Assembly: GCA_031386065.1 (NCBI GenBank)
Contig: JANNBZ010000184.1
Coordinates: 1,155 to 65,154 of the forward strand
Direction: 5' to 3'
From: Burkholderiales bacterium
Lineage (GTDB): Bacteria > Pseudomonadota > Gammaproteobacteria > Burkholderiales > Burkholderiaceae_C
Length of the DNA stretch: 64,000 bases
Positions within the stretch are counted from its first letter, which is position 1; each line of letters begins with the position of its first letter. Positions 5,512 through 26,880 of this stretch are shown in pieces. The notes under the pieces are model-generated. The model saw only the letters and a list, made by a program, of their open reading frames with translations. It was not told the origin of the DNA and searched no databases. The position numbers and the translations under genes are program-made.

Positions 5512-5513
5512 TA

Positions 5514-8342
5514 TCAGGACGCCGCTGTCTGGGCGCGGCTGTCCAGCACCTGACGCACCCTGCGCGCCAACGCGTCGCGGGCGTAGGGCTTGGCCAGCAG
5601 TTCGACACCCGCGTCGAGTCGACCGTCGTGAACTATTGCGCTCTCTGAATACCCCGAGGTGAACAGCACCGCAACCTTCGGCAATGCCAGCCGCACCCGC
5701 GCTGCCAGTTCGGGGCTGCGCAGCGGGCCGGGCATCACCACATCGGTGAACAGCAGGTCGATGCGCGCGCCGCTTTCCACCATGCCCAGTGCGCTGGCCG
5801 CGTCGGGCGCCACCAGCACGCGGTAACCCAGTTCGCGAAGCATCTCGACCACGGTGCCGCGAACGCCCTCGTCGTCCTCGGCGACCAGGATCGTCTCGTT
5901 ACCGCCTTCAACCGGCCCGGCCGCAGCCGGCACCGTCGCAGCCTCGCTGCCCAGCGTGCGCGGCAGGTACAGCGTGATCGTGGTGCCGCGGCCGACCTCG
6001 CTGCGAATGGCCACGTGGCCGCCCGACTGTTTCACGAAACCGTAGACCATCGACAGGCCCAGCCCGGTGCCGCTGCCCACCGCCTTGGTCGAGAAAAACG
6101 GCTCGAAGGCCTGCGCCTGCACCTCGGCCGACATGCCGCAGCCGGTGTCGCTGACGGCCAGCAACACGTAGTCGCCCGGCGGCACCTCGGCGTGTTCGGC
6201 GGCGTTGGCCGATGCGACGCTGGCGTTGCTGACGGCGATGCTCAGTCGGCCGCCCGCGCCCATTGCATCGCGCGCGTTGAGGGCCAGGTTCAGCACCGCG
6301 TTCTCTATCTGCGCCGGGTCGACGAAGGTGTTCCACGGCGGGTGCGCAGCGCGGGTCTCGATCTGCACCGCCTCGCCCAGCGTGCGGTGCAGCATGTCGT
6401 CCAGCCCCGTCACCAGGCGGCCCAGGTCGACGACCTTCGGGTCGAGTGCCTGGCGGCGGCTGAAGGCCAGCAACTGCCCGGCCAGCTTGGCGCCGCGCTG
6501 CACGGCTGCCAGCGCCTTGGCCACGCGCTCGTCGATCTGCGAATGACCGTTGGCGAAGCGACCGATCAGGTGCAGGTTGCCTGCGATGACCTGCAGCAGG
6601 TTGTTGAAGTCGTGCGCCACACCACCGGTGAGCTGGCCGATGGCTTCCATTTTTTGCGACTGGCGCAACTGCGCTTCTGCGGCGCGGCGCTCGGTGATGT
6701 CCATCGCTTCGGGCACGATGGCGATGACCGCGCCGGCGCTGTCGAACACCGGGCGCATCGAGAAGTCGAAGTCACGCCGGCCGATCAGCAGGTTCAGCGA
6801 CACCTCCTGGCGCACCGTCTGCCCTGCGGCCGCCAGCGGAACCGCCGCTCGCACCAGCTCGGGCAATCCCGGCGTGTCAGTGAACCAGGGGGTGTCCCAG
6901 ATCGGCCAGCCGACGACTTCTTCGAGCTGAGCGCCGATGCTGGCGAGCGACGTGCGGTTCACGTCCAGCAACAGACCCTGCGGCGTCAGAAAGCCCTGGT
7001 AGGTGTAGCTGGTCTGGAAGATGGACCGCACGCGCGCTTCCGAGCGTTCCAGCGCGTCGATGCGCTCTTTCGCGGCCGTGACATCGCGGCCGACTGCCAC
7101 CATCAGTCCATTCCCCACCGCAGCCGACCAACTGATCCACACGTGGTGGCCCGCTCTGTGGCGGTATCTGTTTTCGAAGTACCAGAGCGGCTTGCCTTGC
7201 AGGACCGTTTGCGCTGCGCGATGGGTGCCCTCCAGATCGTCGGGGTGCACGAACTCGAACAAGGGGCGGCCGATCAACTCGGCCTCGCTCCAGCCCAGCG
7301 TGGCCGGCCAGGCCGGATTGATGGACATCATCACGCCGTCGAGGCCGGCCACCAGCATCAGGTCGGTCGACAACTGCCAGAGCCGGTTGCGGTCGGCGGT
7401 GCGCTCGCTCACCTGGTGCTCCAGCGTCTCGTTCAGCTTTGTCAGCGCCAGCGCGGCCCGGTGCGCCTCGGTGACGTCGAAACCGTGCGCTGCAATGCCG
7501 CTGACCTGTCCGTCGGGCTCGACCACGGCTTGATAGATGAAGTCGATGTAGGCCTTCTCGGGCGGGCGCTCGGGATCGCGTTGCAGCACGATCGACATGC
7601 CCCGGCCGACGAAGGGCTGACCGGTGGCGTACACCTGATCGAGAAGGTCGATGAAGCCTTGCCCTGCCACTTCGGGCAACGCGTCGACAACGCGGCTGCC
7701 GACCAATTGCCTGCGGCCGGTGAGGCGCTTGTAGGCCTCGTTGGCAAACTCGAACACATGCTCCGGCCCGCGCGCCACCGCAAAGAAGCCGGGCGCCTGC
7801 TCGAAAAACTGCGCCAGCTGCGACGCGACTCGCTGGCTGTGCGACAGCAGGCTCGCATCGCGGCGTTCCCGCGCGACCCGTTCGGTGGCCGGCGTCACTG
7901 TCACCAGCACGCCGCCGACGGAGCCGTCGTCGACCCGCATCGGCGCGTAGGCCACGGAAAAATAGTGGGCCTGCGAGGCGCCATCGACGTTCAGCACGTA
8001 CGACTGGTCTTCGAGCAGGGTGGCTTCGCCGGCCTGCATCGCGCGGCGGTAGATCGGCTGGTTGAAGTCCCACACTTCGGGCCAGCAGTCGCGGGTGGGC
8101 TGTCCCAGGGCCGCCGGGTCGCGCGTTTTAAGAATCTCGCGATAGGCGTCGTTGTAGATCTGCAGCAGGTCGGGCCCCCACAGAACGATCTGCGCCAGCG
8201 GGCAGTCGAGTGCCGCGCTGACGGCGCAGCGCAGCTCGGGCGGCCACAGCGTGCAGGCGCCAAGCGGCGTGGCACCCCAGTCCTTGTCGCGAATGGCCTG
8301 TGCCGCACGCGTGGTGTGGGTGGGCCAGGCGCGCGCGGTCAC
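5514..8342 (-). CDS. hybrid sensor histidine kinase/response regulator with multiple PAS domains
   Basis: Several PAS-like blocks, HisKA (GGVAHDFNNLL), HATPase (GTGLGLSMVYGFV), C-terminal REC (ILVAEDDEGVR...DVVMPG). In-frame GTG at 8342 overlaps the upstream TGA as GTGA. The longer ORF N-terminus is out-of-frame overlap with the REC gene. Confidence 0.8.
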   Translation of the reverse strand: MTARAWPTHTTRAAQAIRDKDWGATPLGACTLWPPELRCAVSAALDCPLAQIVLWGPDLLQIYNDAYREILKTRDPAALGQPTRDCWPEVWDFNQPIYRRAMQAGEATLLEDQSYVLNVDGASQAHYFSVAYAPMRVDDGSVGGVLVTVTPATERVARERRDASLLSHSQRVASQLAQFFEQAPGFFAVARGPEHVFEFANEAYKRLTGRRQLVGSRVVDALPEVAGQGFIDLLDQVYATGQPFVGRGMSIVLQRDPERPPEKAYIDFIYQAVVEPDGQVSGIAAHGFDVTEAHRAALALTKLNETLEHQVSERTADRNRLWQLSTDLMLVAGLDGVMMSINPAWPATLGWSEAELIGRPLFEFVHPDDLEGTHRAAQTVLQGKPLWYFENRYRHRAGHHVWISWSAAVGNGLMVAVGRDVTAAKERIDALERSEARVRSIFQTSYTYQGFLTPQGLLLDVNRTSLASIGAQLEEVVGWPIWDTPWFTDTPGLPELVRAAVPLAAAGQTVRQEVSLNLLIGRRDFDFSMRPVFDSAGAVIAIVPEAMDITERRAAEAQLRQSQKMEAIGQLTGGVAHDFNNLLQVIAGNLHLIGRFANGHSQIDERVAKALAAVQRGAKLAGQLLAFSRRQALDPKVVDLGRLVTGLDDMLHRTLGEAVQIETRAAHPPWNTFVDPAQIENAVLNLALNARDAMGAGGRLSIAVSNASVASANAAEHAEVPPGDYVLLAVSDTGCGMSAEVQAQAFEPFFSTKAVGSGTGLGLSMVYGFVKQSGGHVAIRSEVGRGTTITLYLPRTLGSEAATVPAAAGPVEGGNETILVAEDDEGVRGTVVEMLRELGYRVLVAPDAASALGMVESGARIDLLFTDVVMPGPLRSPELAARVRLALPKVAVLFTSGYSESAIVHDGRLDAGVELLAKPYARDALARRVRQVLDSRAQTAAS

Positions 8343-8764
8343 GGCGCGGGCCTTCGCAGCAGCTCGTCGGGTGGATTTTTCGGCGGGACGCCGGCCGTGA
8401 TCCAGGCCGACAGCACGGCCGGGTCGACCGGCTTCAACACATGCGAATCGAAGCCGGCCGCTTGCGCATGCGCCCAGTCGACGCCGCCACCGGTCAATGC
8501 GACCAGCCGTGCCTGCCGACCCCAGTCCTGCTGGCGAATGCGCCGCGCCACTTCGTAGCCATTGAGCCCCGGCATGCCGATGTCGAGCAACAACACCGGT
8601 GGCTGCTCGCGCGTGGCTTGCTCGATGGCGGACAGTCCGTCGTACGCCACGATCACTCGGTGGCCGTCGAGCTGAAGGCACAGCGCCAGCGTGTCGGCCG
8701 CGTCCCGGTTGTCGTCGGCGATCAGCACGCCGGCTCGCGGCTGTGCAGGCGGGGCGCGGTTCAC
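8339..8764 (-). CDS. single-domain (CheY-like) response regulator
   Basis: 141 aa from GTG 8764: VLIADDNRDAADTL...LLLDIGMPGLNGYEV...LKP. GTGA overlap with the upstream kinase stop. Confidence 0.8.
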   Translation of the reverse strand: MNRAPPAQPRAGVLIADDNRDAADTLALCLQLDGHRVIVAYDGLSAIEQATREQPPVLLLDIGMPGLNGYEVARRIRQQDWGRQARLVALTGGGVDWAHAQAAGFDSHVLKPVDPAVLSAWITAGVPPKNPPDELLRRPAP

Positions 8765-10650
8765 GCGTCCGCCCCGTTCACCGCGCCGCCGTCGGGCGGG
8801 CGACCCGGCTGGCGCAGCGGCTTGACGTAGAACGCATCGAAACCGGAGTCGAGCGCGCGGTCGCGGTCTTCGACCCGGCCGTGGCCGGTCAGGGCGACGA
8901 TGCGGGTCGGATGCCCGGCCAGGCTGTCGCGCAGGCTCTGCACCAGCTCGTAGCCGTCGACATCGGGCAGGCCGATGTCGCACACCACCAGGTCGGGCGC
9001 GAAGCTGGCCGCGATTCGCAGACCGTCGGCCGCGTTGCCGGCGGTCATCACCTCGTTGCCCGCCATCTCGATCAGCACACGCAGGCTGTCGCGCGCGTCG
9101 TCGTTGTCTTCGATGATCAGCACACGGCGGCCGGACACGCTTGAAAGGTCGGTGTCCGCAGCCTCGGCCGCCGCACCGGCGTCCGTGCCGGCAAGCAAGG
9201 GCAGCCGCAGCGTGGCCTGGCTGCCTCGGTTCACGCCGGCGCTGGCGATGTCCACGCTGCCGCCGTGCAGTTCGACCACGCGCCTGGCGATGGTCAGCCC
9301 GACGCCCAGGCCGCCCTGCTCGTGCCCGCCCGACGCGTCGCCCTGCACGAACAGGCCGAACACCTGCGGCAGCAACTCGGGCGCGATGCCGCGGCCGGCG
9401 TCGCGCACGTCGATCACCGCGCTGTCGCCGTCGAGCCGGCACGCCACCAGAATGCTGCTGCCGTCGGGTGAAAACTTGGCCGCGTTGCGCAGCAGGGCCG
9501 CCAGCGCCTGCGACAGGCGCTGCGCGTCGCCGTGGCAGCGCAGGCGGGTCGGATGGCGCGCGATGCGCACGAACTGGCCACGCTGTTCGGTCTCGCCCGC
9601 CACCTCGCCCACCGCGCTGTCGATCAGGTCGTCGATGTCCACGCTCTCGCGCTGCAAAACGATCTTGCCTTGGGTGATGCGGGTCACGTCGACCAGGTCG
9701 GTGATCAGGCGGCGCAGGTGGTCGACCTGGCGTTCGACGATCTCGCGCACCATGACCAGCCTGTCGTCGCCGCCTTCGAGCCGGCGCAGGATGGCGGCCG
9801 CGTTGGCGATGGGCGCCAGCGGGTTGCGCAATTCATGCGACAGCCGGGCCAGGAAGTCTTCGCGGCGGTGGCTGGCAAGGCGCAACGCGCGCGTGTGCGC
9901 CGCGAGCTGGTCTTCGAGCAGCTTGCGGTCGGTGATGTCCAGGCAACTGCCAACGTAGCCCAGGAACGCACCGTCGGCACCGAGGCGCGGCATGCCGGTG
10001 TCCATCACCCAGCGGAACGCGCCGTCGTGGCGCTGCAGCCGGTAGTCCATCGTGAACGCCTCGCGCTCCTGAAGGCTGTTGGCGATGATGCCGGCGCAGC
10101 GCTCGGTGTCTTCGGCGTGCACGCCCTGCATCCAGCCACCGCCGAGTTCCTGGCCCAGGCTGCGACCGCGAAACCCCAGCCACGACTTGTTGAACCAGTC
10201 GCGCGACAGGTCTTCGTCGGCCATCCACAGCAACACGGCCGCCGAGTCCGACGACGCCTTGGATCGGCTTTCGGCCTCTTGCGCCGCACGCGTGGCCTGC
10301 ACCGAGGCGGTCACATCGCGCAGCACCAGAAAGCAGTGCGCGGCCTCAGCTGTCGAGTGACCGGCGGGGAACAGGGTGGCGTCGACATGGTGCGAAGAGC
10401 CGCTGAGAGAACGCGCCCGCAGCCGGCGGGTCCAGCCGGGGTTGCGATGCTGCGGCTCCGCCGCAGGCGCGTGCCAGGCCAGGCCGGTCAGCTGGGCGAA
10501 CGACGGGTAGCGGCCGTCCACCGCCAACCAGGCCGCCGCGCAGTTCCCGCGCACCACCTCGCCTGCAGGGTCCAGCACCAGCACCGCGTTCGGGTGGTTG
10601 TCGAAAAACGCATGCGCGAGCGAGTCGCTCGACAGATTTGAAGTGGGCAT
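8761..10650 (-). CDS. hybrid sensor histidine kinase/response regulator (PAS-PAS-HisKA-HATPase-REC)
   Basis: HisKA H-box LSHELRNPLAPI, HATPase GGLGVGLTIARRVVELHGG, REC VLIIEDNDDARDSL...CDIGLPDVDGYEL. Start set at ATG 10650 (MPTSNLSS) to avoid overlap with the upstream CMD gene. Confidence 0.8.
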   Translation of the reverse strand: MPTSNLSSDSLAHAFFDNHPNAVLVLDPAGEVVRGNCAAAWLAVDGRYPSFAQLTGLAWHAPAAEPQHRNPGWTRRLRARSLSGSSHHVDATLFPAGHSTAEAAHCFLVLRDVTASVQATRAAQEAESRSKASSDSAAVLLWMADEDLSRDWFNKSWLGFRGRSLGQELGGGWMQGVHAEDTERCAGIIANSLQEREAFTMDYRLQRHDGAFRWVMDTGMPRLGADGAFLGYVGSCLDITDRKLLEDQLAAHTRALRLASHRREDFLARLSHELRNPLAPIANAAAILRRLEGGDDRLVMVREIVERQVDHLRRLITDLVDVTRITQGKIVLQRESVDIDDLIDSAVGEVAGETEQRGQFVRIARHPTRLRCHGDAQRLSQALAALLRNAAKFSPDGSSILVACRLDGDSAVIDVRDAGRGIAPELLPQVFGLFVQGDASGGHEQGGLGVGLTIARRVVELHGGSVDIASAGVNRGSQATLRLPLLAGTDAGAAAEAADTDLSSVSGRRVLIIEDNDDARDSLRVLIEMAGNEVMTAGNAADGLRIAASFAPDLVVCDIGLPDVDGYELVQSLRDSLAGHPTRIVALTGHGRVEDRDRALDSGFDAFYVKPLRQPGRPPDGGAVNGADA

Positions 10651-10787
10651 CGACCGCGACCAGTCTCGGAACAGGGGTTGGCCCGCGCTATCGGCGTGCC
10701 TCAGAAGCCAGTGTGAGCGGTCGCCACGGATGGCCGGCCAGACAGCGCCCCATCCCAACGTAGGCGAAGACCCCGCGCAGCGAACCG

Positions 10788-11315
10788 TCAGCTGGCCTCG
10801 ACCTCGATCTGCAGCGCTTCCAGAAAGCGCGACACCATGTTGTAAGCCGCCACCGTGGCGGTCAGCTCGACCACCTCGCGGTCGCTGAAGTGACGCCGCA
10901 GCGCGTCGAACACCGGCTGCGCCACCTGCACCTGCAGCGTCATCGCCTGCGCATAGGCCAGCACGTCGCGTTCGCGATCGCTGAAGGCGCTCGACGCGTG
11001 CCAATCGGCCAACGCATCGAGCTGGCCTTGCGACACGCCTTCAGCCAAGGCCACTGGCGCATGCTGCGCAAATTCGTACGGCGCGCGGTTCAGCAGCGCC
11101 ACCAGCAGGATCACCAGTTCGCGCAGTGCGCCATCAAGCACGCCGCCGGTGCGGATGGCACCGAGGTAAGCATTCCAGCCGCGCGCGATGGGTGCGCTGT
11201 GCAGCAGCTGCCGGTCCAGGTTCAGCAGCGTGCCGCCGCGCCGCGCCTGCACGGCATGCACCAGTTCCACATCCACACCTGCGGTGTGCGCGTCGACGAA
11301 GGGAAGGCGGGCCAT
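10788..11315 (-). CDS. carboxymuconolactone decarboxylase (AhpD-like) family protein
   Basis: 175 aa. Resembles the CMD/AhpD-like helical family (RELVILLVALLNRAPYEFAQH). Confidence 0.75.
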   Translation of the reverse strand: MARLPFVDAHTAGVDVELVHAVQARRGGTLLNLDRQLLHSAPIARGWNAYLGAIRTGGVLDGALRELVILLVALLNRAPYEFAQHAPVALAEGVSQGQLDALADWHASSAFSDRERDVLAYAQAMTLQVQVAQPVFDALRRHFSDREVVELTATVAAYNMVSRFLEALQIEVEAS

Positions 11316-14054: not shown

Positions 14055-15488
14055 ATGTACTCAGACGTGCAACTCTTCATCGACGGCGAATGGTGCCAAG
14101 GCACCGGCGGCAAGAGCGAAGCCATCGTCAACCCTGCGACGGGGCAGGTGATCGCGCGTCTGGCGCACGCCGACCGCAGCGACCTCGACCGCGCGCTGGC
14201 TGCGGCCGACAAGGGCTTCAAGCAATGGCGTGCGGTGTCGGCCTTCGAGCGCTACAAGCTGCTGCGCAAGGCGGGCGAGTTGATCCGCAGCCGGGCTGGC
14301 GAGATTGCCGAACTGATGACGCTGGAACAGGGCAAGCCGCTGGCCGAGGCGAAGGCCGAGACGATGGCGGCCGGCGACATCATGGACTGGTTCGCCGAGG
14401 AAGCGCGCCGCACCTACGGCCGCGTGGTGCCGGCGCGTGCCGACGGCGTCAGCCAGTTGGTGATCAAGGAGCCGGTGGGTCCGGTGGCCGCGTTCACGCC
14501 GTGGAATTTCCCCATCAACCAGGCGGTGCGCAAGCTGTCGGCGGCGCTGGCGGCGGGTTGCTCGGTGATCCTGAAGGGGCCTGAAGAAACGCCGGCCAGT
14601 TGCGCGGCGCTGGTGCGCGTGTTCGCCGATGCCGGTGTGCCGGCGGGCGCCATCAACCTGGTGTTCGGCGTGCCGGCGGACATCTCGGCCTACCTGATTG
14701 CGCACCCGGTCATTCGCAAGATCACTTTCACCGGCTCCACCGCCGTGGGCAAGAAGCTGGCGGCGCTGGCCGGCGAGCACATGAAGCGGGTCACGATGGA
14801 ACTCGGCGGGCACGCGCCGGCCATCGTGTTCGGCGACGCCGATGTCGACAGCGCCGCGCGCATGTTGGCCGGCGCCAAGTTCCGCAACGCGGGCCAGGTG
14901 TGCGTGGCACCCACGCGCTTTCTGGTGCACGAGTCGGTCTACCCGCGCTTCGTCGACAGCTTTGTCGCAGCGGCGTCGGCCATCAAGGTCGGCAGTGGCA
15001 TGGACAAGGAGACCCGCATGGGCCCGCTCGCCAACAGCCGGCGTGTCGAGGCGATGGAGATGTTCGTGGCCGACGCAGTCGGCAAGGGCGCGAAGCTGTT
15101 GCTGGGCGGCAAGCGCATCGGCAGCGAGGGCTACTTTTTCGAGCCGACGGTGTTGACCGAGGTGCCGATGAGCGCGCGCATCATGCAGGAAGAACCGTTC
15201 GGACCGATCGCGCCGATCACGTCGTTCAAGGACTTCGACGAGGTGGTGGCCGAGGCGAACCGGCTGCCTTACGGGCTGGCCGCGTATGCGTTCACCAAGT
15301 CATTGAAAACCGCCTCGGCCATTGGCGCGGCGTTCGAGAGCGGCATGGTGTCGATCAACCATTTCGGGCTGGCCCTGCCCGAGGTGCCGTTCGGCGGCGT
15401 GAAGGATTCGGGCTACGGCTCCGAAGGCGGCACCGAAGCCATCGAGGCCTACCTGAACACCAAGTTCATCACGCAGGTGGGCTTGTAG
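14055..15488 (+). CDS. NAD(P)-dependent aldehyde dehydrogenase (succinate-semialdehyde-DH-like)
   Basis: [27 protein letters not shown] (catalytic Cys), EEPFGPI. Start at [13 protein letters not shown]. Confidence 0.9.
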
Positions 15489-16962
15489 CTTGACGTGAGC
15501 CAGCGGCGCGCACCACGGTGACGGTGCACGCCGACTCGGCCACCACGCGGGCCGAGACACTGCCCAGGTAGCGCCGCAGCACCGAGTTGCTGCGCGCGCC
15601 CATCACGATGTGGTCGACCTGGTTCTTGCGCGCGTAGTCGACGATGGCGGCGGCGGCGTCGGGCGCTTCGATCACGTGGAAGGTCACGCGCGCGTCCTGC
15701 TGCAACTTGCTCAGCGCCAGCGTGTTCACCACCGGCCGCGCCCAGTGCTTCAGTTGGACCAGCAGGTTCACGTGCTTGCTGCTGCCGTCTTTTTCCATCG
15801 GCACGTCGATGGCGATGCGCTGCGTCTTCATCACCGCCAGGCAGGCCAGCCGCGCGCCGGGCTCGGTTTGCAGCACGCGCTGCACGCTGGCGCGCACCGC
15901 GTCGAGCAGCGCAGCTTCGGAGCCGCCGATGTCCAGCGCCGCCAGCACGATGGGGTTGTCGCTGGCTGGCGATCCGCTGGGCGCGCCGCCGCGCGGCTCG
16001 GCACCGAGTGCGGCAAACCAGCGCCGCACCACGCGAAACAGGCCGCTGCGCTGCGAGCGCTCGGCGCGGGCGGTCAGCGTGACCTGTTCCGGGTGCTGCA
16101 GGTCGAACGCCAACTGCGCCGCGCTCTGGTGGCGCCGTTCGGGCTTCACGTCCAGGCAGCGCAGGATGATTTCCTGCAGCCACGGCGGACAGTCGGCGCG
16201 CAGCGCGCGCGGCGGAACCGGGTCGCGGTACAGCCGCTCGCGCAGCCCGCGCACGCTGGCGGGTGCGCCGAACGGACGTGCGCCGGTGGTCAGGTGGTAC
16301 AGCATGACGCCGAGCGCGAACAGGTCGCTGCGCGGATCGCTGCGAACGAACTGAATCTGCTCGGGCGACATGTAGGGGCTGGTGCCCATCGGCAGCTCGA
16401 ATTCTTCTTCCAGCAGGTCGGGCAGCTGGTCGTGGCGCGACAGGCCGAAGTCGATCAGCACCGCCTCGCCACGCTCACCGTCCAGACCTGCGCGGAACAG
16501 GATGTTGCTGGGCTTCACGTCGAGGTGAACCACATGCTGCCGGTGCAGGTCGTGCAGCGCGGTGGCGACTCGGTGGCCGATGTCCACCACCTCGGCAATG
16601 GCCAGCGGGGCGGCATCGAAGCGCGCCTTCAGCGACTCGCCGGGAATGCGCTCCATCACGATGTAGGGCTGTGCCGTGAAGTCGCCCTTGGCGACGAAGG
16701 CCGGCACGTGCGGGCCGGCGAGCATCGGCATGATCATCTGCTCGACCTCGAAGCCGACGATGGTGGTCGGGTCGTCGCCACCGCGCAGGCGCGGCACCTT
16801 CATGATCAGCGGACGCGCCTCAACGCTGTCGATGTGCGTGACGCGCCACAGGTTTGCCATGCCGCCCTGGTGGGTGCGCTCTTCCAGGCGAAACCCATCG
16901 ATGACCTGGCCGGCAGCCAACGGGCTTCTGGGCGTGCGGGCAGGCGATGGCTCAGACGCCAT
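15469..16962 (-). CDS. Ser/Thr protein kinase fused to a C-terminal universal stress protein (USP) domain
   Basis: Hanks kinase motifs ([25 protein letters not shown]). The C-terminal ~150 aa is USP-like ([21 protein letters not shown]...[19 protein letters not shown]). Confidence 0.85.
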
Positions 16963-20491: not shown

Positions 20492-20525
20492 ACGTGGTTG
20501 TGCGCCGGGCAAGAGCGCGCCCATG

Positions 20526-20552
20526 AAAAAGGCCCGCAGTGCGGGCCTTTGT
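20526..20552. terminator. bidirectional intrinsic terminator between the DUF3579 gene and rpsT
   Basis: AAAAA-GGCCCGC-agt-GCGGGCC-TTT: a 7-bp GC stem flanked by A and T tracts, between convergent genes. Confidence 0.65.
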
Positions 20553-20571
20553 TCTGGGCGGTGTGTGCGAC

Positions 20572-20880
20572 TCAGGCCGCGGCAGACGTTGCGAGCGCCT
20601 TGATCTTGGCCGACAGGCGGCTCTTGTGGCGAGCGGCCTTGTTCTTGTGGAACAGGCCCTTGTCGGCCACGGAGTCGATCACGCTTTGCGCGGTGGCGTA
20701 CAGCTCGGCGGCCTTGGCCTTGTCACCGGTCAGCACGGCTTTCTGCACGTTCTTGACGACGGTGCGGAACTTGGAACGAAGGGCGGTGTTGGCCGCGTTC
20801 AGCTTCACGTCTTGGCGCACGCGCTTAAGGCCCGATGCAATGCGGACTGTCTTTTTCTTGGCTTTAGCGGAGGTTGCCAT
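20572..20880 (-). CDS. rpsT: 30S ribosomal protein S20
   Basis: [40 protein letters not shown]... is unmistakably S20. Confidence 0.95.
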
Positions 20881-20914
20881 GCTGGTAGTAAGTTGAAATT
20901 TGTAGAAGTCGGCG

Positions 20915-20945
20915 AGTATAGCATTTGGCTGAAATCGGCTGCCAA
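20915..20945 (-). promoter_or_regulatory. candidate sigma70 promoter for rpsT (TTGGCA-19 nt-TATACT)
   Basis: Hexamers read on the minus strand about 35 nt upstream of the rpsT ATG. The 19-nt spacer is long. Confidence 0.3.
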
Positions 20946-21038
20946 CCCCAGGACGGGAAGAGCAAGAGCAAGCCGTCGATCTGTGCTGCGTTCACGGCGC
21001 GTGCCCGACTCTATGCAGATCGATTGGCAGAGGTCCTC

Positions 21039-21671
21039 CTAGCCCCGCCCTCTTCCTCGCGCCGCCGCACCGATGGCGAACAGGCCGGCCAGGACGAGCG
21101 CGTAGGTTGCCGGTTCCGGGACCATCGTTACGTCACATCCGCCGCCGCCATTACCGACAGCGACGCAGGCACCCGCGTAGTTCAACCGGAGCGACTCACC
21201 GTTTCGACCGACCACATTGCGTTGGAAGATCGAATCAGGCCCAAAGTCAAGATGCGTCACACCATTTGCAACAGCGGTGAAGGTGAGATCGAAGAGGAGG
21301 AACGGATCGTTCGTTTGTAGAGCGCTGAGGTCAGTATCGCTGGTTAGCAGTGAATAGATCACGACACCTCGATTACCCGAATCGAACGATGAATCCAACA
21401 CTCCATCAGTTCCTCCGAACTGCGTTTTCGATTCGAAAGAGACGATCCCTGCGGTACTCAGGATGGTTGAGTTGAACAAAACGTTCAGATCCAGCGCCGA
21501 GACAATCTCATTGATGGAATGCAGTCCGCTGATGCTTACACTAACCTTGACGGAATCTCCAACCGCGACGCTTTGCTGCGTTGGCGTCATGTAGAGAAGC
21601 GGCACAGCGAGAGACGCTCCCGGCAGCAGTGTAACGAGGGCTAGGCCGATAGTTGCCAAGAGCTTATTCAT
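21039..21671 (-). CDS. cohesin-like domain protein with PEP-CTERM sorting signal
   Basis: Signal peptide, then a cohesin-like opening (TPTQQSVAVGDSVKVSVSISGL...ALDLNVLFNSTIL...FDLTFTAVANGVTHLDF). C-terminus VPEPATYALVLAGLFAIGAAARGRGRG has the form PEP motif + TM + basic tail. Confidence 0.7.
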   Translation of the reverse strand: MNKLLATIGLALVTLLPGASLAVPLLYMTPTQQSVAVGDSVKVSVSISGLHSINEIVSALDLNVLFNSTILSTAGIVSFESKTQFGGTDGVLDSSFDSGNRGVVIYSLLTSDTDLSALQTNDPFLLFDLTFTAVANGVTHLDFGPDSIFQRNVVGRNGESLRLNYAGACVAVGNGGGGCDVTMVPEPATYALVLAGLFAIGAAARGRGRG

Positions 21672-21717
21672 AACGTTATCTCCGTGGTGAGATCAGAAAT
21701 TCGAAACCGCAACCGCT

Positions 21718-23508
21718 TTATTGAGCACAGTTTGGCCGCGTGCATTGAAGGGTGCACTTTCGTACGTCATTTATGGTGATCCTTCCGTCGCCGTCTGCGT
21801 CACGCGGATCGTTGGCGACCGGGATTTGCCCAATGCCAGCGCGGACAAGAGCGATATCTAGAGAGTCCACATCACCATCACCATCGATATTGCAAGTGAT
21901 CGCCGCCTTGCTACTGACTGTCAGGTCGAACAATAGAGGCGACTGGCCGTCCGTGGTCGCGTTCAAGCGAGTCAAAATCTGAATGAAGCGTCCTGAGGCT
22001 GCAAAGTCGACACCTTTACTCACGGTTTGATAGCTTTGAAGGGGCAAAGATGCTTGCGTGTCGGCAGCACGAACCTGAACGATAACTGTTGCACCCTGCG
22101 GAACAAGGTCGTTCCAGTTGACCTTCCCCCATGCTGTTCCGTTAGCGCCTCCGTCTAGGCTCGCGGTCCACGTACCAGTGTTGTTGGTCGCGTTGCGCGC
22201 TGCGAACCCAGCAGCATCGCTGTAAGTGTATGGCATATTACCGACTGGGAATACACCGAGCGGCGATCCGTCCGAACCTCTGTACTTTTGCATGCGTCCA
22301 GCGCTAGCGAATCCGATCTGCCAAACATCGTTATTCGAATCGACTTGTATTCCGATTGCGCTTGTGCCGCCAGCCTGGAGCGGAGCTTGCCACAAGAGTG
22401 TCCCGGTTGGACTGACTTTGCGGATACTTGACTGCCCGCCGATAATGTTTCCGGAACCATCAACCACGATACCCGAAGTCCCCACATTTAAATTGACAAT
22501 TGGGCTGAATGTGTTAGTTACCGGATCGAATTCGATATTTGCAGAGCCAAGATAAACTTTATTATTACCGAGGGCAATTCCGTAGTTGAAACTGCTATTG
22601 TATGCCGAAACAATGTATGGGCCGGTATTGCTTGCTGTATTCGTGATCTTTCCCAAGGTCCCACCGAGGGATGCACTCCATAAGACGCCTTTATTATCAA
22701 TTAAACAGCCGTAAGGCGTCCATTGGTTTCCGGGCTGCCCGGCGGAAGGCGTAGTGCTGATGGGGCCTGCAATTTGACTGCCGTCGGCCGCACTGATCTT
22801 GTAGTATGTCCGCTCGTTGTACATGCCTACCCATAGATTACCATCAGTTCCGACGCAGAGCGAACGACCTAAACCGTTCTGTGATCCAACTTCGGCTACC
22901 CATGCGATACGTTCGTCAGTTATTTCATTTGCATCGATTTTTCCATTACCGTTAAGGTCTGCCATCGGCTTGATTTCGCCCGCGTCAATTACGCCGTTTC
23001 CATTCGTATCTTCAGACGTGTCCATGACGCCATTTCCGTTGCGATCAATGAAGCCCTCGGTGAGAACTTTGATCAGCACAGGTTTTACATTAGCGAACCA
23101 GCGATTCAAAATGTACGCGTTGCCCTGGATATCGACTGCAGTACGTGATGGCGCCGGCCCGGCGTAGGCGTTGTTCAAGTGATTCACATACCCGGCTTGA
23201 CCGCTCGGCCCGAACCAGGTGCGATACCGCGCGAGTTCCTTGTTGTTGACAGTATCGAACTTGGATAGTGAGTCTTCGCCGGCGTTGGCAATCCACATCA
23301 CTGGAAAGGTGGTCCCAATAGTATTGAGTTGCAATTGGTTGTGAACGGTATCGAAGTTCACGCCGGAAAGAGCTCCGAGAGCGAAGTCGGCATCGAGCGT
23401 GTATGTCTTCGATGCTGCGAGCGTAGCGGTGGGTATCACAGCGGCGACCGAAGCGAGCGCTAAAAGGCTGTTTTGGCTTACTTTCGACAGATTCCAGGTG
23501 CTTGCCAT
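21718..23508 (-). CDS. secreted beta-propeller-like protein with internal Ca-loop triplet and C-terminal dockerin-like module
   Basis: Signal peptide; repeated ...DGNLWV/...GVLWSA/...NDVWQ strand motifs; DRNGNGVMD, DTNGNGVID and DLNGNGKID. C-terminus is DGDGDVDSLDIALVRAGIG...DADGDGRITINDVRKC, i.e. two EF-hand-like dockerin repeats. Confidence 0.65.
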   Translation of the reverse strand: MASTWNLSKVSQNSLLALASVAAVIPTATLAASKTYTLDADFALGALSGVNFDTVHNQLQLNTIGTTFPVMWIANAGEDSLSKFDTVNNKELARYRTWFGPSGQAGYVNHLNNAYAGPAPSRTAVDIQGNAYILNRWFANVKPVLIKVLTEGFIDRNGNGVMDTSEDTNGNGVIDAGEIKPMADLNGNGKIDANEITDERIAWVAEVGSQNGLGRSLCVGTDGNLWVGMYNERTYYKISAADGSQIAGPISTTPSAGQPGNQWTPYGCLIDNKGVLWSASLGGTLGKITNTASNTGPYIVSAYNSSFNYGIALGNNKVYLGSANIEFDPVTNTFSPIVNLNVGTSGIVVDGSGNIIGGQSSIRKVSPTGTLLWQAPLQAGGTSAIGIQVDSNNDVWQIGFASAGRMQKYRGSDGSPLGVFPVGNMPYTYSDAAGFAARNATNNTGTWTASLDGGANGTAWGKVNWNDLVPQGATVIVQVRAADTQASLPLQSYQTVSKGVDFAASGRFIQILTRLNATTDGQSPLLFDLTVSSKAAITCNIDGDGDVDSLDIALVRAGIGQIPVANDPRDADGDGRITINDVRKCTLQCTRPNCAQ

Positions 23509-23568
23509 GATGTTGACTCCGTAATAGTCGCGCCACCCGGGCGCCGGTTGCTGGTCGAGCCGAACGAA

Positions 23569-24618
23569 CTAACGCTTCGCGAGGGGTCGCGATGCCGGCT
23601 CCATGTCGTGCGAGGTATTGCTGCTTATGCGGGCGGTTTCGCCGCTGGAAATATAGACCCGGAATAGCTGCGAGGTTCCGGTCTGTAAACTGTCGAACAC
23701 GATACTTTTGCCGTCTGCCGACCACTGCGGGTCAAATTCCTCATAGGGAGTTCTTGTCAGATTTCGGATATTGCTTCCGTCGACGGCGATCAAAAATATA
23801 TCGTTACGAGACCGCAGAGGGTCGTCGCGGTTACTGGCAGCGACGATTTGTTTGCCGTCGGGCGACCAGCGAGGCGACTCATACGAGGCCGCCTCGTCCA
23901 ACGTCAGGATTTGCGACTCACCAGTCTCGACGTTCGCAAGGACAACAGGTTTGGTCACCCGCAGGTCAGCCACGTATGCGACGCGTTTGCCATCGGGCGA
24001 AATCGATGCCCACGCCTTGTCGCGGGCAGCGAACTTTCCGCTGATGTCGTGCAGAGCGCTGCCATCGCGATTGACGACCCATACCTGGGCTTTGTCTTTG
24101 TCGTCGCGTCCCATGAATGCAAGGCGACTTCCGTCGGCAGACCAAGCTGGCGGTTGCGTTCCTTTGTCCTTGCCGTTGCCAACCACGGAAACACTCTTTC
24201 CACTTGCTATTTCCGTGATGCGCATTTCCATTGCGCCCGATTCGATCACAGTCGAAAAGAACGCTACCGATTTGCCATCAGGCGACCACGAGGCAGAGCC
24301 TTCAATGCGATCATCCTGTGTCAAACGCCGCTGACCGCTTCCATCGTCATTCATAAGATAGATGCGCGGCAGCCCATTGCGCGACGAGGTGAAGGCCAGT
24401 CGTCCATCGACGGACCACGCTGGCTGCGTGTTAATGCTCTTGCCTTGCGTAAGTACGCGGTCGACGCCATCACGGTTGGAATAGATGTGCGCATCTCCGC
24501 TTCGTATCGAAACGAAAACTATGTCCGCTGCGGAGGCCGAAAGGGTATTGTCTGCACGAATCCCCTGCATCGCAAATGCAGCGCAAGCTACGAAGGCTGA
24601 GGCAATAATACGGGTCAT
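23569..24618 (-). CDS. TolB-like PD40/WD40-like beta-propeller repeat protein (secreted)
   Basis: Signal peptide MTRIIASAFVACAAFA. Repeated WSPDGK/WSADG/SPDGKRVAY PD40 motifs. ATG 24618 preferred over GTG 24630. Confidence 0.75.
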   Translation of the reverse strand: MTRIIASAFVACAAFAMQGIRADNTLSASAADIVFVSIRSGDAHIYSNRDGVDRVLTQGKSINTQPAWSVDGRLAFTSSRNGLPRIYLMNDDGSGQRRLTQDDRIEGSASWSPDGKSVAFFSTVIESGAMEMRITEIASGKSVSVVGNGKDKGTQPPAWSADGSRLAFMGRDDKDKAQVWVVNRDGSALHDISGKFAARDKAWASISPDGKRVAYVADLRVTKPVVLANVETGESQILTLDEAASYESPRWSPDGKQIVAASNRDDPLRSRNDIFLIAVDGSNIRNLTRTPYEEFDPQWSADGKSIVFDSLQTGTSQLFRVYISSGETARISSNTSHDMEPASRPLAKR

Positions 24619-24629
24619 GGCGGTTTGCA

Positions 24630-24986
24630 CTAAGGCACCGAATTGATATTCACCATAGACAATTCCTTGCCGGAGCTGTCGAGAATTCTCAGTTGGTATA
24701 TGCCGGGTGAGTTTGACTTGAGCTTGTACTTAAGTGTGCCGTCGCTGGAAACCATGACTCCATAGTGCGCCTCGGCCCCCTGAGGCGTGGTCACTGCGAC
24801 GGTGACTGACGTGTTGGGCGTCAACCCGGTGGCTTTAAAAACTCCTGCTGACGCGACAGTTAGGATTGATGGCCCCGAAAGCGACGGATTGCCAGCCATT
24901 GCCTGAGGGACGAGCATTGCCGATGCAACCAGCGCCAAGAGACGTGACGCGATGCCAATGGCGGTTTTTGAGTAGAAGTTGAACAT
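24630..24986 (-). CDS. small secreted protein, probably Ig-like beta-sandwich (hypothetical)
   Basis: 118 aa. Signal peptide ending QAMA-G, beta-rich T/V/S sequence, AGGAGA RBS 6-7 nt upstream of the ATG. No family recognised. Confidence 0.5.
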   Translation of the reverse strand: MFNFYSKTAIGIASRLLALVASAMLVPQAMAGNPSLSGPSILTVASAGVFKATGLTPNTSVTVAVTTPQGAEAHYGVMVSSDGTLKYKLKSNSPGIYQLRILDSSGKELSMVNINSVP

Positions 24987-25323
24987 GCCGTCTCTCCTAG
25001 GTCAGGGGGTAGGTCTGCGCCAGCGACGTTGCCGACACGTTTGGAACAAGGTGGGCCACGATGCCCGTAAGGCTGCGTTGGTCTACTTCGCTGCGGTGGC
25101 GATTGACTACGACTTCGCGCACTCGACAAACTGATTCAATGGAACAAAATGTAGATTCGTTCGCAGGTCTTGACTTGTGTTGTTCTAGGGGTTCCCCCAA
25201 AACATAGGGGGGTGATACGGGTTTGCCCCGTGTCCCAAGTGCTGCGCCGTCATCTGGCCGATGATTTATATAATTGATTGTTCGGCCCGTCGTCCGCCAC
25301 GCCGACCCCTGTTCCCGTCCCCC

Positions 25324-26880
25324 ATGAACCTGCTGCGGACCGCCTCCACCATTTCCTTGTTCACCCTCGCATCGCGCGTGTCGGGGCTGGTGCGCGACAC
25401 GCTGCTGGCCGCAGCATTCGGTGCGGGCGCCTGGATGGACGCTTACCAGGTGGCGTTTCGCATCCCTAACCTGCTGCGAAGGATGTTCGCCGAGGGCGCG
25501 TTTTCGCAGGCCTTCGTGCCCATCCTGTCCGAAACCCGGGCCCGTGAAGGTGAAGAGATCACCCGCCGCCTGATCGATGCGGTGGCCACGGTGCTGACCT
25601 GGGCGCTGTGCCTGACCTGCGTGGTGGGCATCGTGGCGGCACCTCTGATCGTCTGGTTGATGGCCTCGGGCCTGGAGCGATTCGACGCGGCAGTGTTGAT
25701 GACGCGCTGGATGCTGCCCTACATCGGCTTCATGTCCCTGGTGTCCCTGTCGTCGGCCATTCTGAACACCTGGAAGCGGTTTGCCGTGCCGGCCGCCACA
25801 CCCGTGTTGCTGAACCTGGCGGTGATCGGCGCCACCGTGTGGCTTGCGCCGACGTTCAAACGGCACGGCATCGAGCCGATCTACGCGCTGGCGGTAGGCG
25901 TGCTGATCGGCGGCGTGTTGCAGCTTGCGGTGCAGGTGCCGGCCTTGATGCGCATCGGCGGCCTGCCTCGCATCGGCATCACGCCGGCCAGCGTCGGGCG
26001 GGCCTGGAACCACCCCGGCGTGGGTCGCGTGCTGGGCAGGATGGCGCCGGCCTTGCTGGGGGTTTCGGTGGCCTACCTGTCGCAGCTGATCAACACCCAG
26101 TTGGCATCGCGCATCGGTGTCGGGGCGGTGTCGTGGCTCACCTATGCCGACCGCTTGATGGAGTTTCCGACCGGCCTGCTCGGTGTGGCGCTTGGCGTGG
26201 TCTTGCTGCCGCAATTGGCGGCGGCCAAGGCGCTGGACGATTCCGACGCGTACTCGGGTTTGATCGACTGGGGCCTGCGCCTGGTGCTGCTGCTGGCGCT
26301 GCCCTGCGCGGTGGCGCTGGTCGTGTTCCCCACGCCGATGGTGGCCACCCTGTTTCACCACGGCGCATTCACCGACACCGACGTTACGCAGACGGTTCGC
26401 GCGCTGATGGGTTACGGCGTCGGCCTGATGGGGCTGATCGGCGTCAAGATTTTGGCGCCCGCGTTTTATGCGCGACACGACATTCGCACCCCGGTCAAGG
26501 TGGCCATCGTCGTGCTGGTGCTGACGCAGTTGCTCAACGTGGTGTTCGTGCCGCGCCTGGGCCACGCGGGGCTGGCCTTGTCGATCGGCGTCGGCGCGCT
26601 GGTCAACGCGATGTGGTTGTTCATCGGCCTGCGCCGCAGCGGAACTTACCGGCCTGTCGCAGGATGGGGCCGCTTCACTTTGAAGGTGTGCGTGGCCTGC
26701 ATTGCGTTGGGCGCCGGCCTGGCCTGGGCCGCGCAAGCCGTCGACTGGCTGGCCCTGGGAAATCAAAAGTGGACCCGTGCCGGCCTGCTGGCCGCTGGCC
26801 TGGGGTCGGCTGCGTTGCTGTACCTGGGCTTGCTCGCCGCGATGGGACTGCGGCCGCGCCAGTTCATGCGCCGGGGATAA
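25324..26880 (+). CDS. murJ: lipid II flippase MurJ (MviN)
   Basis: MNLLRTASTISLFTLASRVSGLVRDTLLAAAFGAG...AFRIPNLLRRMFAEGAFSQAFVPIL is the canonical MurJ N-terminus. Polytopic membrane protein. Confidence 0.9.
   Translation: MNLLRTASTISLFTLASRVSGLVRDTLLAAAFGAGAWMDAYQVAFRIPNLLRRMFAEGAFSQAFVPILSETRAREGEEITRRLIDAVATVLTWALCLTCVVGIVAAPLIVWLMASGLERFDAAVLMTRWMLPYIGFMSLVSLSSAILNTWKRFAVPAATPVLLNLAVIGATVWLAPTFKRHGIEPIYALAVGVLIGGVLQLAVQVPALMRIGGLPRIGITPASVGRAWNHPGVGRVLGRMAPALLGVSVAYLSQLINTQLASRIGVGAVSWLTYADRLMEFPTGLLGVALGVVLLPQLAAAKALDDSDAYSGLIDWGLRLVLLLALPCAVALVVFPTPMVATLFHHGAFTDTDVTQTVRALMGYGVGLMGLIGVKILAPAFYARHDIRTPVKVAIVVLVLTQLLNVVFVPRLGHAGLALSIGVGALVNAMWLFIGLRRSGTYRPVAGWGRFTLKVCVACIALGAGLAWAAQAVDWLALGNQKWTRAGLLAAGLGSAALLYLGLLAAMGLRPRQFMRRG

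Follow-up and report, generated by a model that had tools for sequence, protein, structure and literature searches.

A horizontally acquired four-gene cassette in the rpsT–murJ spacer of a Burkholderiales bacterium encodes a probable cohesin–dockerin surface display pair

In a 64,000-nt stretch of DNA from a Burkholderiales bacterium (contig JANNBZ010000184.1; called the window in the following), an island of ~4.4 kb lies between the genes rpsT and murJ. The island (20940..25320, minus strand) is a variable or inserted segment which is recognized by its low G+C content, by an empty site in relatives and by steps of sequence identity at its borders, and it comprises a cassette of four genes together with the leader and trailer of the cassette. 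The genes code for a small protein of 118 aa (p118), a PD40 β-propeller protein of 353 aa, a second propeller protein of 596 aa with a dockerin-like tail (p596), and a protein of 210 aa with a predicted cohesin fold and a PEP-CTERM tail (p210). Taking the evidence together, we judge it moderately probable that this operon came into the rpsT–murJ spacer by horizontal gene transfer, that its alleles were exchanged among close relatives, and that p596 and p210 serve the display of a propeller module at the cell surface by means of a cohesin–dockerin pair.

The composition of the block sets it clearly apart from its surroundings. Between 20950 and 25260 the G+C content is 54.7% compared with 67.7% in the rest of the 64 kb, and no other 4.3-kb stretch of the window is as low (sliding mean 0.667, standard deviation 0.032). 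In 300-nt windows the G+C content drops from 0.62–0.73 in the flanks to 0.48–0.58 at ~21150–25200. The G+C content at third codon positions (GC3) is 0.56–0.65 in the four genes of the block and 0.79–0.92 in the 45 other called genes of the window, that is, the two ranges do not overlap. As the G+C content at codon positions 1 and 2 is nearly equal in both groups of genes, the anomaly is one of codon usage and not of amino acid content. The initial annotation of this DNA, which was made from the sequence alone, had described an AT-rich block of ~4.3 kb with an abrupt change in composition and had proposed a sliding G+C and codon profile as a check, with the absence of a deviation counting against it; both profiles do deviate. 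The borders given there were right to within about 10 nt on the left, whereas on the right side the variable segment is ~60 nt longer and extends to the start of murJ. The four open reading frames are co-directional on the minus strand and, as had been described with gaps of 60 nt or less, tightly packed: the spacers are 46 nt (p210/p596) and 60 nt (p596/PD40), and the p118 and PD40 genes overlap by 1 nt. From their sequences all four proteins appear to start with Sec-type signal peptides and would be exported.

The site of the island is normally empty. The left flank is rpsT (20572..20880, minus strand; 30S ribosomal protein S20; Pfam Ribosomal_S20p 7e-26, TIGR00029 4e-29, GC3 0.83) and the right flank is murJ (25324..26880, plus strand; lipid II flippase; Pfam MurJ 2e-127, TIGR01695 6e-133). 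A MurJ-seeded scan with one genome per GTDB species yielded 80 loci from the Rubrivivax/Rhizobacter/Piscinibacter/Aquabacterium group and the Comamonadaceae. In ~70 of these 80 loci, which belong to many genera, rpsT and murJ are divergent and 70–280 nt apart; what the initial annotation had stated about the neighbourhood of both genes in Burkholderiales is therefore correct. None of the 80 loci has the cassette between rpsT and murJ, and the sole match to an island protein among them is a weak one to the PD40 protein (32% identity, ~5 kb from murJ, locus L046). The closest GTDB relative, a Burkholderiales metagenome-assembled genome (L001; RpsT 96%, MurJ 82% identical), has an empty site with a spacer of 148 nt. 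Its homology to the window at the DNA level runs through position 20939 on the left and restarts at 25316 on the right (blastn). Given the empty spacer in the relatives, the block is an insertion.

The left junction is found at about 20940, in agreement between the blastn comparison to L001, the fall of identity to the allele L081 (see below) and a three-way alignment of the junction. On this side ~60 nt of rpsT upstream sequence (20881..20939, minus strand), which are common to the empty site, are retained in the window, including a TATACT hexamer resembling a −10 element and putatively part of the rpsT promoter. On the other side a TATAAT is found at 25269–25274 (plus strand), 50 nt ahead of the murJ start. 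The cargo thus seems to be located between two back-to-back promoters. Consensus scans for sigma-70 promoters and terminators were uninformative at the island borders.

The step in G+C and GC3 together with the empty sites supports the reading that the block is a horizontally acquired genomic island, and this is the reading that had been offered at the outset, including its statement that no integrase, transposase, tRNA or flanking direct repeat is visible. The signatures of mobility are indeed missing, and with respect to the route of entry this weighs against our interpretation. ARAGORN found no tRNA in the 64-kb window; direct or inverted repeats flanking the block are short chance matches only; mobility genes are absent among the annotated neighbours in the window (annotation covered roughly 38 kb of it) and in five other annotated cassette contexts; and p596 has no match in plasmid and phage collections. 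The search for a donor, which had also been suggested, returned homologs and no lineage that could be named as the donor, as the nearest p596 proteins beyond the same site are only 70–73% identical and come from metagenome contigs. As a plain genomic island the locus is ordinary, since small islets without an integrase are a known kind of feature.

Other cargo is also found in the rpsT–murJ spacer. Two Polaromonas metagenome-assembled genomes carry a short-chain dehydrogenase/reductase (SDR) gene and a DsbA-like gene at this place (L035, 8500-9983, and L054), and L019 contains ~5 kb of unassigned DNA (4880-10000) with host-like G+C content, whose plus-strand open reading frames have no Pfam match. 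The spacer may be a mild insertion hotspot.

The four genes are not an arbitrary cargo; they form a conserved and widely distributed module. More than 900 homologs of p596 were detected, and the best 120 are 59–84% identical, 575–615 aa long and distributed across Beta- and Gammaproteobacteria; those of Inhella, Paucibacter, Roseateles, Rheinheimera and Alkalimonas carry the annotation hypothetical protein. In every annotated context the gene order is the same, and the products have ~118 aa, ~350 aa (the PD40 protein), ~600 aa and ~200–220 aa. Overall the order is kept in dozens of genomic contexts which are unrelated to each other, and the hosts range from 36 to 71% G+C. In Inhella the cassette is situated between lpxC and ruvC, in Rheinheimera nanhaiensis between a LuxR-type response regulator and a hybrid kinase, in L085 between fatty-acid metabolism genes, and in L086 after a LysE gene. 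A scan of metagenomes added 79 cassette loci. Using hidden Markov models (HMMs) for the four proteins, all four genes were found in 30 of the 48 loci that are long enough to hold them; where p596 is at least 58% identical, the set is complete in nearly every locus, and detection weakens in the distant loci.

In the 30 loci with long flanks the G+C content of the cassette tracks that of its host (0.41–0.70) with a mean difference of −0.008. The deficit of the window relative to its flanks is −0.13 and is the most extreme of these 30 loci. We can therefore reject that a low G+C content is an intrinsic property of the cassette, as the cassette follows the host in the 29 other loci. Because of this tracking, the low G+C content is a mark of the recent acquisition by this lineage and not of the cassette itself.

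Some variants of the cassette were seen. In Inhella sp. GCA_041916855 (L083, 2587-10448) a partial tandem duplication gives the order p113, PD40, p589, p217, PD40, p587, p218, and partial tandem duplications are also present in L088 and L091. L096 has two PD40–p596 pairs and no detected cohesin gene. In Rheinheimera nanhaiensis (L084, 5750-13918, BAFK01000005) the genes bracketing the cassette code for a LuxR/GerE-type response regulator and a large hybrid PAS histidine kinase.

The last gene of the operon codes for p210 (21039..21671, minus strand, 210 aa). Its product comprises a signal peptide, a predicted cohesin-fold domain, a conserved pair of cysteines and a PEP-CTERM tail (VPEPATYALVLAGLFAIGAAARGRGRG). 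The AlphaFold2 model of p210 gives strong support to a cohesin fold, a jelly roll of nine strands: the first 45 Foldseek matches in the PDB are all cohesin modules, with E values down to 1e-8 and template modelling (TM) scores up to 0.78. Matches to the Pfam Cohesin family PF00963 are precomputed for some p210 homologs. The C-terminus consists of a VPEP motif, a hydrophobic helix and an Arg-rich cluster, and in the family alignment P185 and P187 never vary, while V184 and E186 hardly do. The score for TIGR02595 is above the cut-off (17.4 vs 16) and that for Pfam PF07589 slightly below (20.1 vs 20.7). Judged by these features of its C-terminus, p210 has what would be expected of a PEP-CTERM/exosortase substrate. 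In Rheinheimera nanhaiensis L084 the tail reads IPAP where the other loci read VPEP.

The preceding gene codes for p596 (21718..23508, minus strand, 596 aa), whose AlphaFold2 model has a mean predicted local distance difference test (pLDDT) value of 78. Behind the signal peptide a β-propeller (residues ~33–436), a β-sandwich (444–533) and a Cys-rich, dockerin-like tail (539–596) can be distinguished. The propeller carries an insert of three canonical EF-hand-like calcium loops (150–200), and in the Foldseek search it is closest to the propellers of Vgb lyase (TM 0.67–0.70), PknD-NHL, YncE and BamB. In the tail there are two F-hand loops, NIDGDGDVDSLD and DADGDGRITIND, and behind each of them a helix is predicted (549–557 and 579–586). 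This is the two-F-hand, two-helix layout of dockerins, in which a segment of ~22 residues with a 12-residue calcium-binding F-hand loop and a helix is present twice. Cys539, Cys585, Cys589 and Cys594 are invariant or nearly so. When the PDB was searched with a family profile, nearly all matches to residues 533–594, and among them all of the best, were dockerins and a few were EF-hand calcium-binding proteins. Matches to Pfam Dockerin_1 (PF00404) are precomputed for many p596 homologs, and the tail is present in 56 of 61 homologs. Hence the identification of the tail as a dockerin is moderately supported. The description of the two proteins in the initial annotation, a cohesin-like PEP-CTERM protein and a propeller with a dockerin-like tail, has thus stood up well as regards the fold and the tail of p210 and the propeller of p596, and in part as regards the dockerin.

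An exhaustive profile search showed that the propeller and the sandwich of p596 (positions ~15–538) make up a discrete module. This core (window 21895-23421, minus strand, residues ~30–538; P0133-P0281) is represented by at least 871 clusters at 50% identity with E<=1e-30. It occurs alone with the tail and also within proteins of up to 4,067 aa, and the larger proteins examined are fusions to the adhesin stalk domains Big_9, cadherin-like, PKD, HYR, SdrD_B and Big_13. No Pfam model matches the propeller core. In giant proteins the core is also found beside ice-binding-like domains.

How might the two proteins work together? We suggest that a host exosortase would attach p210 via its PEP-CTERM tail to the cell surface or to the exopolysaccharide layer, where p210 would present a single cohesin module. 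The C-terminal, calcium-binding dockerin-like tail of p596 would then plug into this cohesin, and the docking would display the head of propeller and β-sandwich outside the cell. This head would serve for binding or adhesion, or might be an enzyme, and the TolB-like PD40 propeller and the small Ig-like protein would be accessory partners. The distribution of the genes is consistent with a physical interaction of p210 and p596. Among 61 non-redundant complete p596 homologs with available downstream sequence, 56 have the tail, and in 51 of these a p210-like gene follows. The five tail-less homologs are longer variants with other C-termini, and none of them has a p210-like gene downstream. The association (51/56 vs 0/5) has a p value of 4e-5 in Fisher's test, which ignores phylogeny.

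Several observations weigh against this model. The five tail-less cases probably represent only two or three lineages, and five tailed homologs have no detected cohesin gene (two in L096, and one each in L116, L118 and L141), though in L116 there is a downstream PEP-CTERM open reading frame which was missed by the HMM. The AlphaFold2 model of p210 is of modest confidence (pLDDT 68), and the Cohesin family PF00963 scores 19.2 bits with a cut-off of 24.1 and covers residues 31–85 only. The PDB dockerin matches of the p596 tail have E values of only 0.06–0.8, and Dockerin_1 scores 19.6 bits, below its cut-off of 22.9. No exosortase gene is present among the genes annotated in ~38 kb of the window.

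With these points in mind one could suppose that there is no display complex at all, that p596 is secreted or periplasmic and acts as a free enzyme or lectin, with a C-terminal calcium-binding, disulfide-rich tail that serves only to stabilize the protein, and that p210 is an independent PEP-CTERM surface protein. The subthreshold Cohesin and Dockerin scores and the tailed homologs devoid of a neighbouring cohesin gene would fit such a view, as would the resemblance of the propeller to enzymes such as Vgb lyase and the presence of further EF-hand loops within the propeller. We consider this rather doubtful, since the fold search with p210 returns cohesins exclusively for 45 ranks, the tail has the layout of a dockerin, the tail goes along with the adjacent cohesin gene in both presence and loss, and the gene order and the tight spacing are kept across classes.

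The cohesin–dockerin display model invites comparison with the clostridial cellulosome, in which the cohesins of a scaffoldin bind enzyme-borne dockerins. The best matches of p210 are type I cohesins of scaffoldins from Clostridium and Acetivibrio, and the tail of p596 aligns to type I dockerins. In contrast to the cellulosome, the cassette has one cohesin and one dockerin, and its cargo is a propeller. No CAZyme (carbohydrate-active enzyme), glycoside hydrolase or carbohydrate-binding module (CBM) domain was found in the four island proteins. A cellulosome can be rejected, as there is only a single cohesin, no multi-cohesin scaffoldin and no carbohydrate-active enzyme.

Cohesin- and dockerin-like modules outside cellulosomes have reportedly been surveyed by Peer et al. 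in 2009. Such non-cellulosomal pairs resemble the cassette in having a single cohesin module and a C-terminal duplicated F-hand module, encoded by adjacent genes, and no carbohydrate-active enzyme. The cassette differs from them in that the carrier of the cohesin, here in a Gram-negative bacterium, has a PEP-CTERM/exosortase signal and not an S-layer homology (SLH) domain or a sortase signal, in that the dockerin is Cys-rich, and in that the pair is part of a fixed set of four genes with a PD40 propeller and an Ig-like protein. In the literature searched no paper combines a dockerin with PEP-CTERM, and the sole match to 'cohesin domain' and 'exosortase' was a review of methanotrophic archaea. 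The parts, cohesin, dockerin, PEP-CTERM and PD40, are known; their arrangement has apparently not been described in that literature.

We now turn to the history of the locus. Exact-protein look-ups revealed three closer metagenomic relatives, all of them short metagenome contigs, in which the cassette occupies this site too. One of them, L168, is practically identical to the window (99.5%). The allele of L166/L167 has a nucleotide identity of ~88% to the window (p596 93%, p210 88.5%) and a GC3 of 0.51–0.63. The allele of L081/L082 is much more distant: while the flanks are 93–97% identical to the window (MurJ 96%, RpsT 100%, DUF3579 97%), the island is only ~72% identical (p118 67%, PD40 71%, p596 84%, p210 74.5%), and the GC3 of its genes is 0.68–0.77. 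The initial annotation had named the presence of the four genes at this locus, with similar composition, in all close relatives as a finding that would contradict an acquisition; they are indeed present in these nearest metagenomic relatives, and not beyond them. The identity between the window and L081 steps abruptly at ~20940 and ~25330, and on the left side the drop, at about 20938, is from 94% to 40%. Of the ancestral murJ leader seen in L001, some 75 nt survive in L081 and are missing from the window.

The synonymous divergence (dS; Nei-Gojobori) between the window and L081 is 0.12–0.41 in the flanks and 1.07 to saturated in the island, and the ratio of nonsynonymous to synonymous divergence (dN/dS) of the island is 0.06–0.24, from which it follows that the island genes are under purifying selection. 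Between the window and L166 the dS is 0.29–0.65 in the island and 0.26 in rpsT, of which a fragment of 41 codons is the sole flank available in L166. Since the divergence of the flank is alike in both pairs, the allele of L081 is far older than its backbone, and the saturated synonymous divergence despite flanks of 93–97% identity implies a replacement of the allele or a re-insertion. A single simple insertion is not sufficient as a history, because the copies at the same site are deeply diverged alleles. It counts against this reasoning that dS is inflated by the difference in GC3 between the alleles.

We therefore suggest the following course of events as the most economical account. By horizontal transfer into a recent ancestor of what is a narrow Burkholderiales lineage, the operon would have entered the normally empty rpsT–murJ spacer. 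It would have landed between the upstream regions of both genes, so that rpsT and murJ, which are essential, keep their own upstream sequence. The copy in the window would have retained the codon usage of a donor with roughly 50–55% G+C. After the entry the alleles would have diverged in separate lineages, and close relatives would have swapped the locus or acquired it anew, with homologous recombination via the rpsT and murJ flanks as the most likely route; such an exchange would be the reason why sister lineages have deeply diverged alleles at the same site. The route by recombination is what we infer from the alleles and their borders.

Two weaker alternatives to an exchange have to be weighed. 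The alleles could have diverged in place after one ancestral insertion, with a faster evolution of the island due to weak codon bias, independent amelioration of the alleles to a high G+C content or diversification of surface proteins and with no replacement. The three same-site alleles are indeed mutual nearest relatives among about 120 homologs as ranked by identity and by clustering with the unweighted pair group method with arithmetic mean (UPGMA; p596 93% and 83%, the next one 73%), the island dS between the window and L166 is only ~1–2.5 times that of the flank, and the unequal GC3 of the alleles (0.56–0.65 vs 0.68–0.77) is as expected from unequal rates of amelioration. Nevertheless, we regard divergence in place as unlikely. 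In the two pairs the dS of rpsT is alike (0.22 and 0.26), whereas that of the island is 0.3–0.65 in one and 1.1 to saturated in the other; the low dN/dS speaks against diversifying selection; the identity falls abruptly at both borders, from 94% to about 40–70% within 100 nt; and the murJ leader of the window is unlike the ancestral leader kept by L081.

Alternatively, two or more variants of the cassette could have been inserted independently, the spacer being a hotspot, and again no replacement via the flanks would be needed. The other cargo found in the same spacer in L035, L054 and L019, as well as the different right junctions of the window and L081, would agree with that. On the other hand, the left junctions of the window and L081 are at the same few nucleotides relative to L001, the same-site alleles form a clade among the about 120 homologs, and neither a site-specific recombinase nor a repeat is present, so that repeated insertion appears quite improbable. 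A further view, that the whole group once had the locus and the relatives lost it, with the low G+C content owed to gene-specific constraints, would suit the presence of the cassette at the site in all nearest relatives, and can be dismissed with near certainty in view of the compact 70–280-nt spacer in about 70 genomes of many genera, the G+C shift at third codon positions, the cassettes elsewhere which track a host G+C content from 0.41 to 0.70, and their location at unrelated sites in other genomes.

With regard to the exchange of alleles via the flanks the island can be compared with other islets without an integrase, for example, capsule or O-antigen loci, which are exchanged by recombination in their flanks. 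The island shares with them a compositionally foreign block between core genes, diverged alleles at the same site and sharp identity steps at the borders. It differs in being small (4.4 kb), in having no genes for polysaccharide synthesis and in its position between two essential divergent genes.

The other two proteins of the cassette are less easily placed. The 353-aa protein (23569..24630, minus strand) has a signal peptide and a clear PD40 propeller (Pfam PD40 1e-36), in line with its initial description as PD40/TolB-like, and it is homologous to the C-terminal six-bladed PD40 β-propeller domain of TolB of the Tol-Pal system (PDB TolB 2.7e-18, propeller part only). The TolB equivalog TIGR02800 scores 175 with a cut-off of 343 and aligns with the profile positions 243–417 only. 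We reject that the protein is TolB itself, as the N-terminal α/β domain of TolB is absent and the score is far below the equivalog cut-off; in addition, and in contrast to tolB, the gene is part of an accessory cassette and not of a tol-pal operon. At position 24630 the stop codon of p118 shares 1 nt with the annotated PD40 start codon, a GTG, and the same is true of L168; L081 has 12 nt between the two genes and a PD40 product of 349 aa. The real start of the PD40 protein in the window may be a downstream ATG (MTRII...).

The first gene of the operon codes for p118 (24630..24986, minus strand, 118 aa), a small exported protein and probably an Ig/filamin-like β-sandwich. It has no match in Pfam or NCBIfam and weak matches to filamin Ig repeats (E 0.004–0.03), so that the earlier assignment as Ig-like is only weakly supported. 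The gene is kept as the first gene of the cassette in other loci. Beyond the generic PEP-CTERM and TolB-propeller similarity no specific NCBIfam family was found for the four proteins.

Upstream of p118 a long 5′ leader or regulatory region of the cassette (24987..25320, minus strand) adjoins the upstream region of murJ. It is only about 50–58% identical to that of L081. It contains an inverted repeat of a C-run and a G-run, which in the sense of the operon reads CCCCCCTATGTTTTGGGGG (25194..25212, minus strand) and which recurs upstream of cassettes as a cassette-associated cis element. At 100–230 nt upstream of the first gene it is present in 18 of 38 non-redundant cassettes compared with 1.15 expected from the background of the same loci, and its background rate in the 80 Burkholderiales loci is 3% per 350 nt. 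Besides the window it was found in L081, L083, L085-L088, L091, L093, L097, L099, L124, L125, L142, L143 and L145-L147. Its general form is C4-7, a variable spacer of 3–12 nt and G4-8, so that loop and spacing vary, and as a further G or C run is often adjacent, alternative pairings are possible. Rfam contains no family matching the island or the leader; the only hits, to Thr_leader and sR32, are weak, fall outside the leader and are due to chance. The predicted RNA structure of the leader is no better than that of shuffled sequences (z −0.37).

Proteobacterial PEP-CTERM genes mostly form single-gene operons behind a sigma-54 promoter and a box containing TTTACA (Haft et al. 2006, PMC1569441). 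p210 shares with the proteins of this system the VPEP motif, the hydrophobic helix and the Arg-rich cluster; however, its gene is the last of four tightly packed genes, and what is conserved upstream is the C-run/G-run element and not the sigma-54 and TTTACA motifs. Upstream of p118 the best sigma-54 site is not convincing (score 10.5 of 15.5) and there is no TTTACA box, and neither motif was found upstream of other betaproteobacterial cassettes. Membership in the PEP-CTERM regulon (PrsK/PrsR, sigma-54) is therefore rejected. The upstream region of the cassette in the Rheinheimera locus L084 contains a fair sigma-54-like site (TGGCTTGCACTATGCA), 92 nt from the first gene.

The best-known case of cohesin–dockerin assembly is the cellulosome of Gram-positive anaerobes. 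Should the display model hold, this type of assembly would extend to aerobic Proteobacteria of freshwater, soil and marine habitats and be linked to the poorly understood PEP-CTERM/exosortase pathway, with p596 and p210 as a testable pair of client and anchor. As the core of p596 is abundant, highly conserved, not covered by a Pfam model and also present in giant adhesin-like proteins, finding a ligand or an activity for it would annotate thousands of proteins. The locus also illustrates how a block without an integrase enters and is then exchanged between two essential divergent genes, leaving both undisturbed. Going further, one may speculate, and we do so only tentatively, that the cassette is an undescribed and widespread display system of Gram-negative bacteria, in which p596 docks non-covalently and in a calcium-dependent way to the exosortase-anchored p210 and which is assisted by the PD40 and Ig-like proteins, that in some lineages it is a swappable allele at a fixed site reminiscent of antigenic or receptor variation, and that the ~500-aa head is a new family of extracellular domains absent from Pfam.

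Elsewhere in the window, two adjacent large genes for hybrid PAS histidine kinases/response regulators (5514-11004, minus strand) and a gene for a Ser/Thr protein kinase fused to a universal stress protein domain (15469-16962, minus strand) have the ordinary composition of the host; they are located upstream of arginine biosynthesis genes and have no evident link to the island. Finally, the DUF3579 gene and rpsT are convergent, with a near-perfect inverted repeat of 21 nt (20518-20560; 86% complementary, 1-nt loop) between their 3′ ends. The repeat is probably a bidirectional terminator; its position is kept in L001, as seen from a short reverse blastn match.

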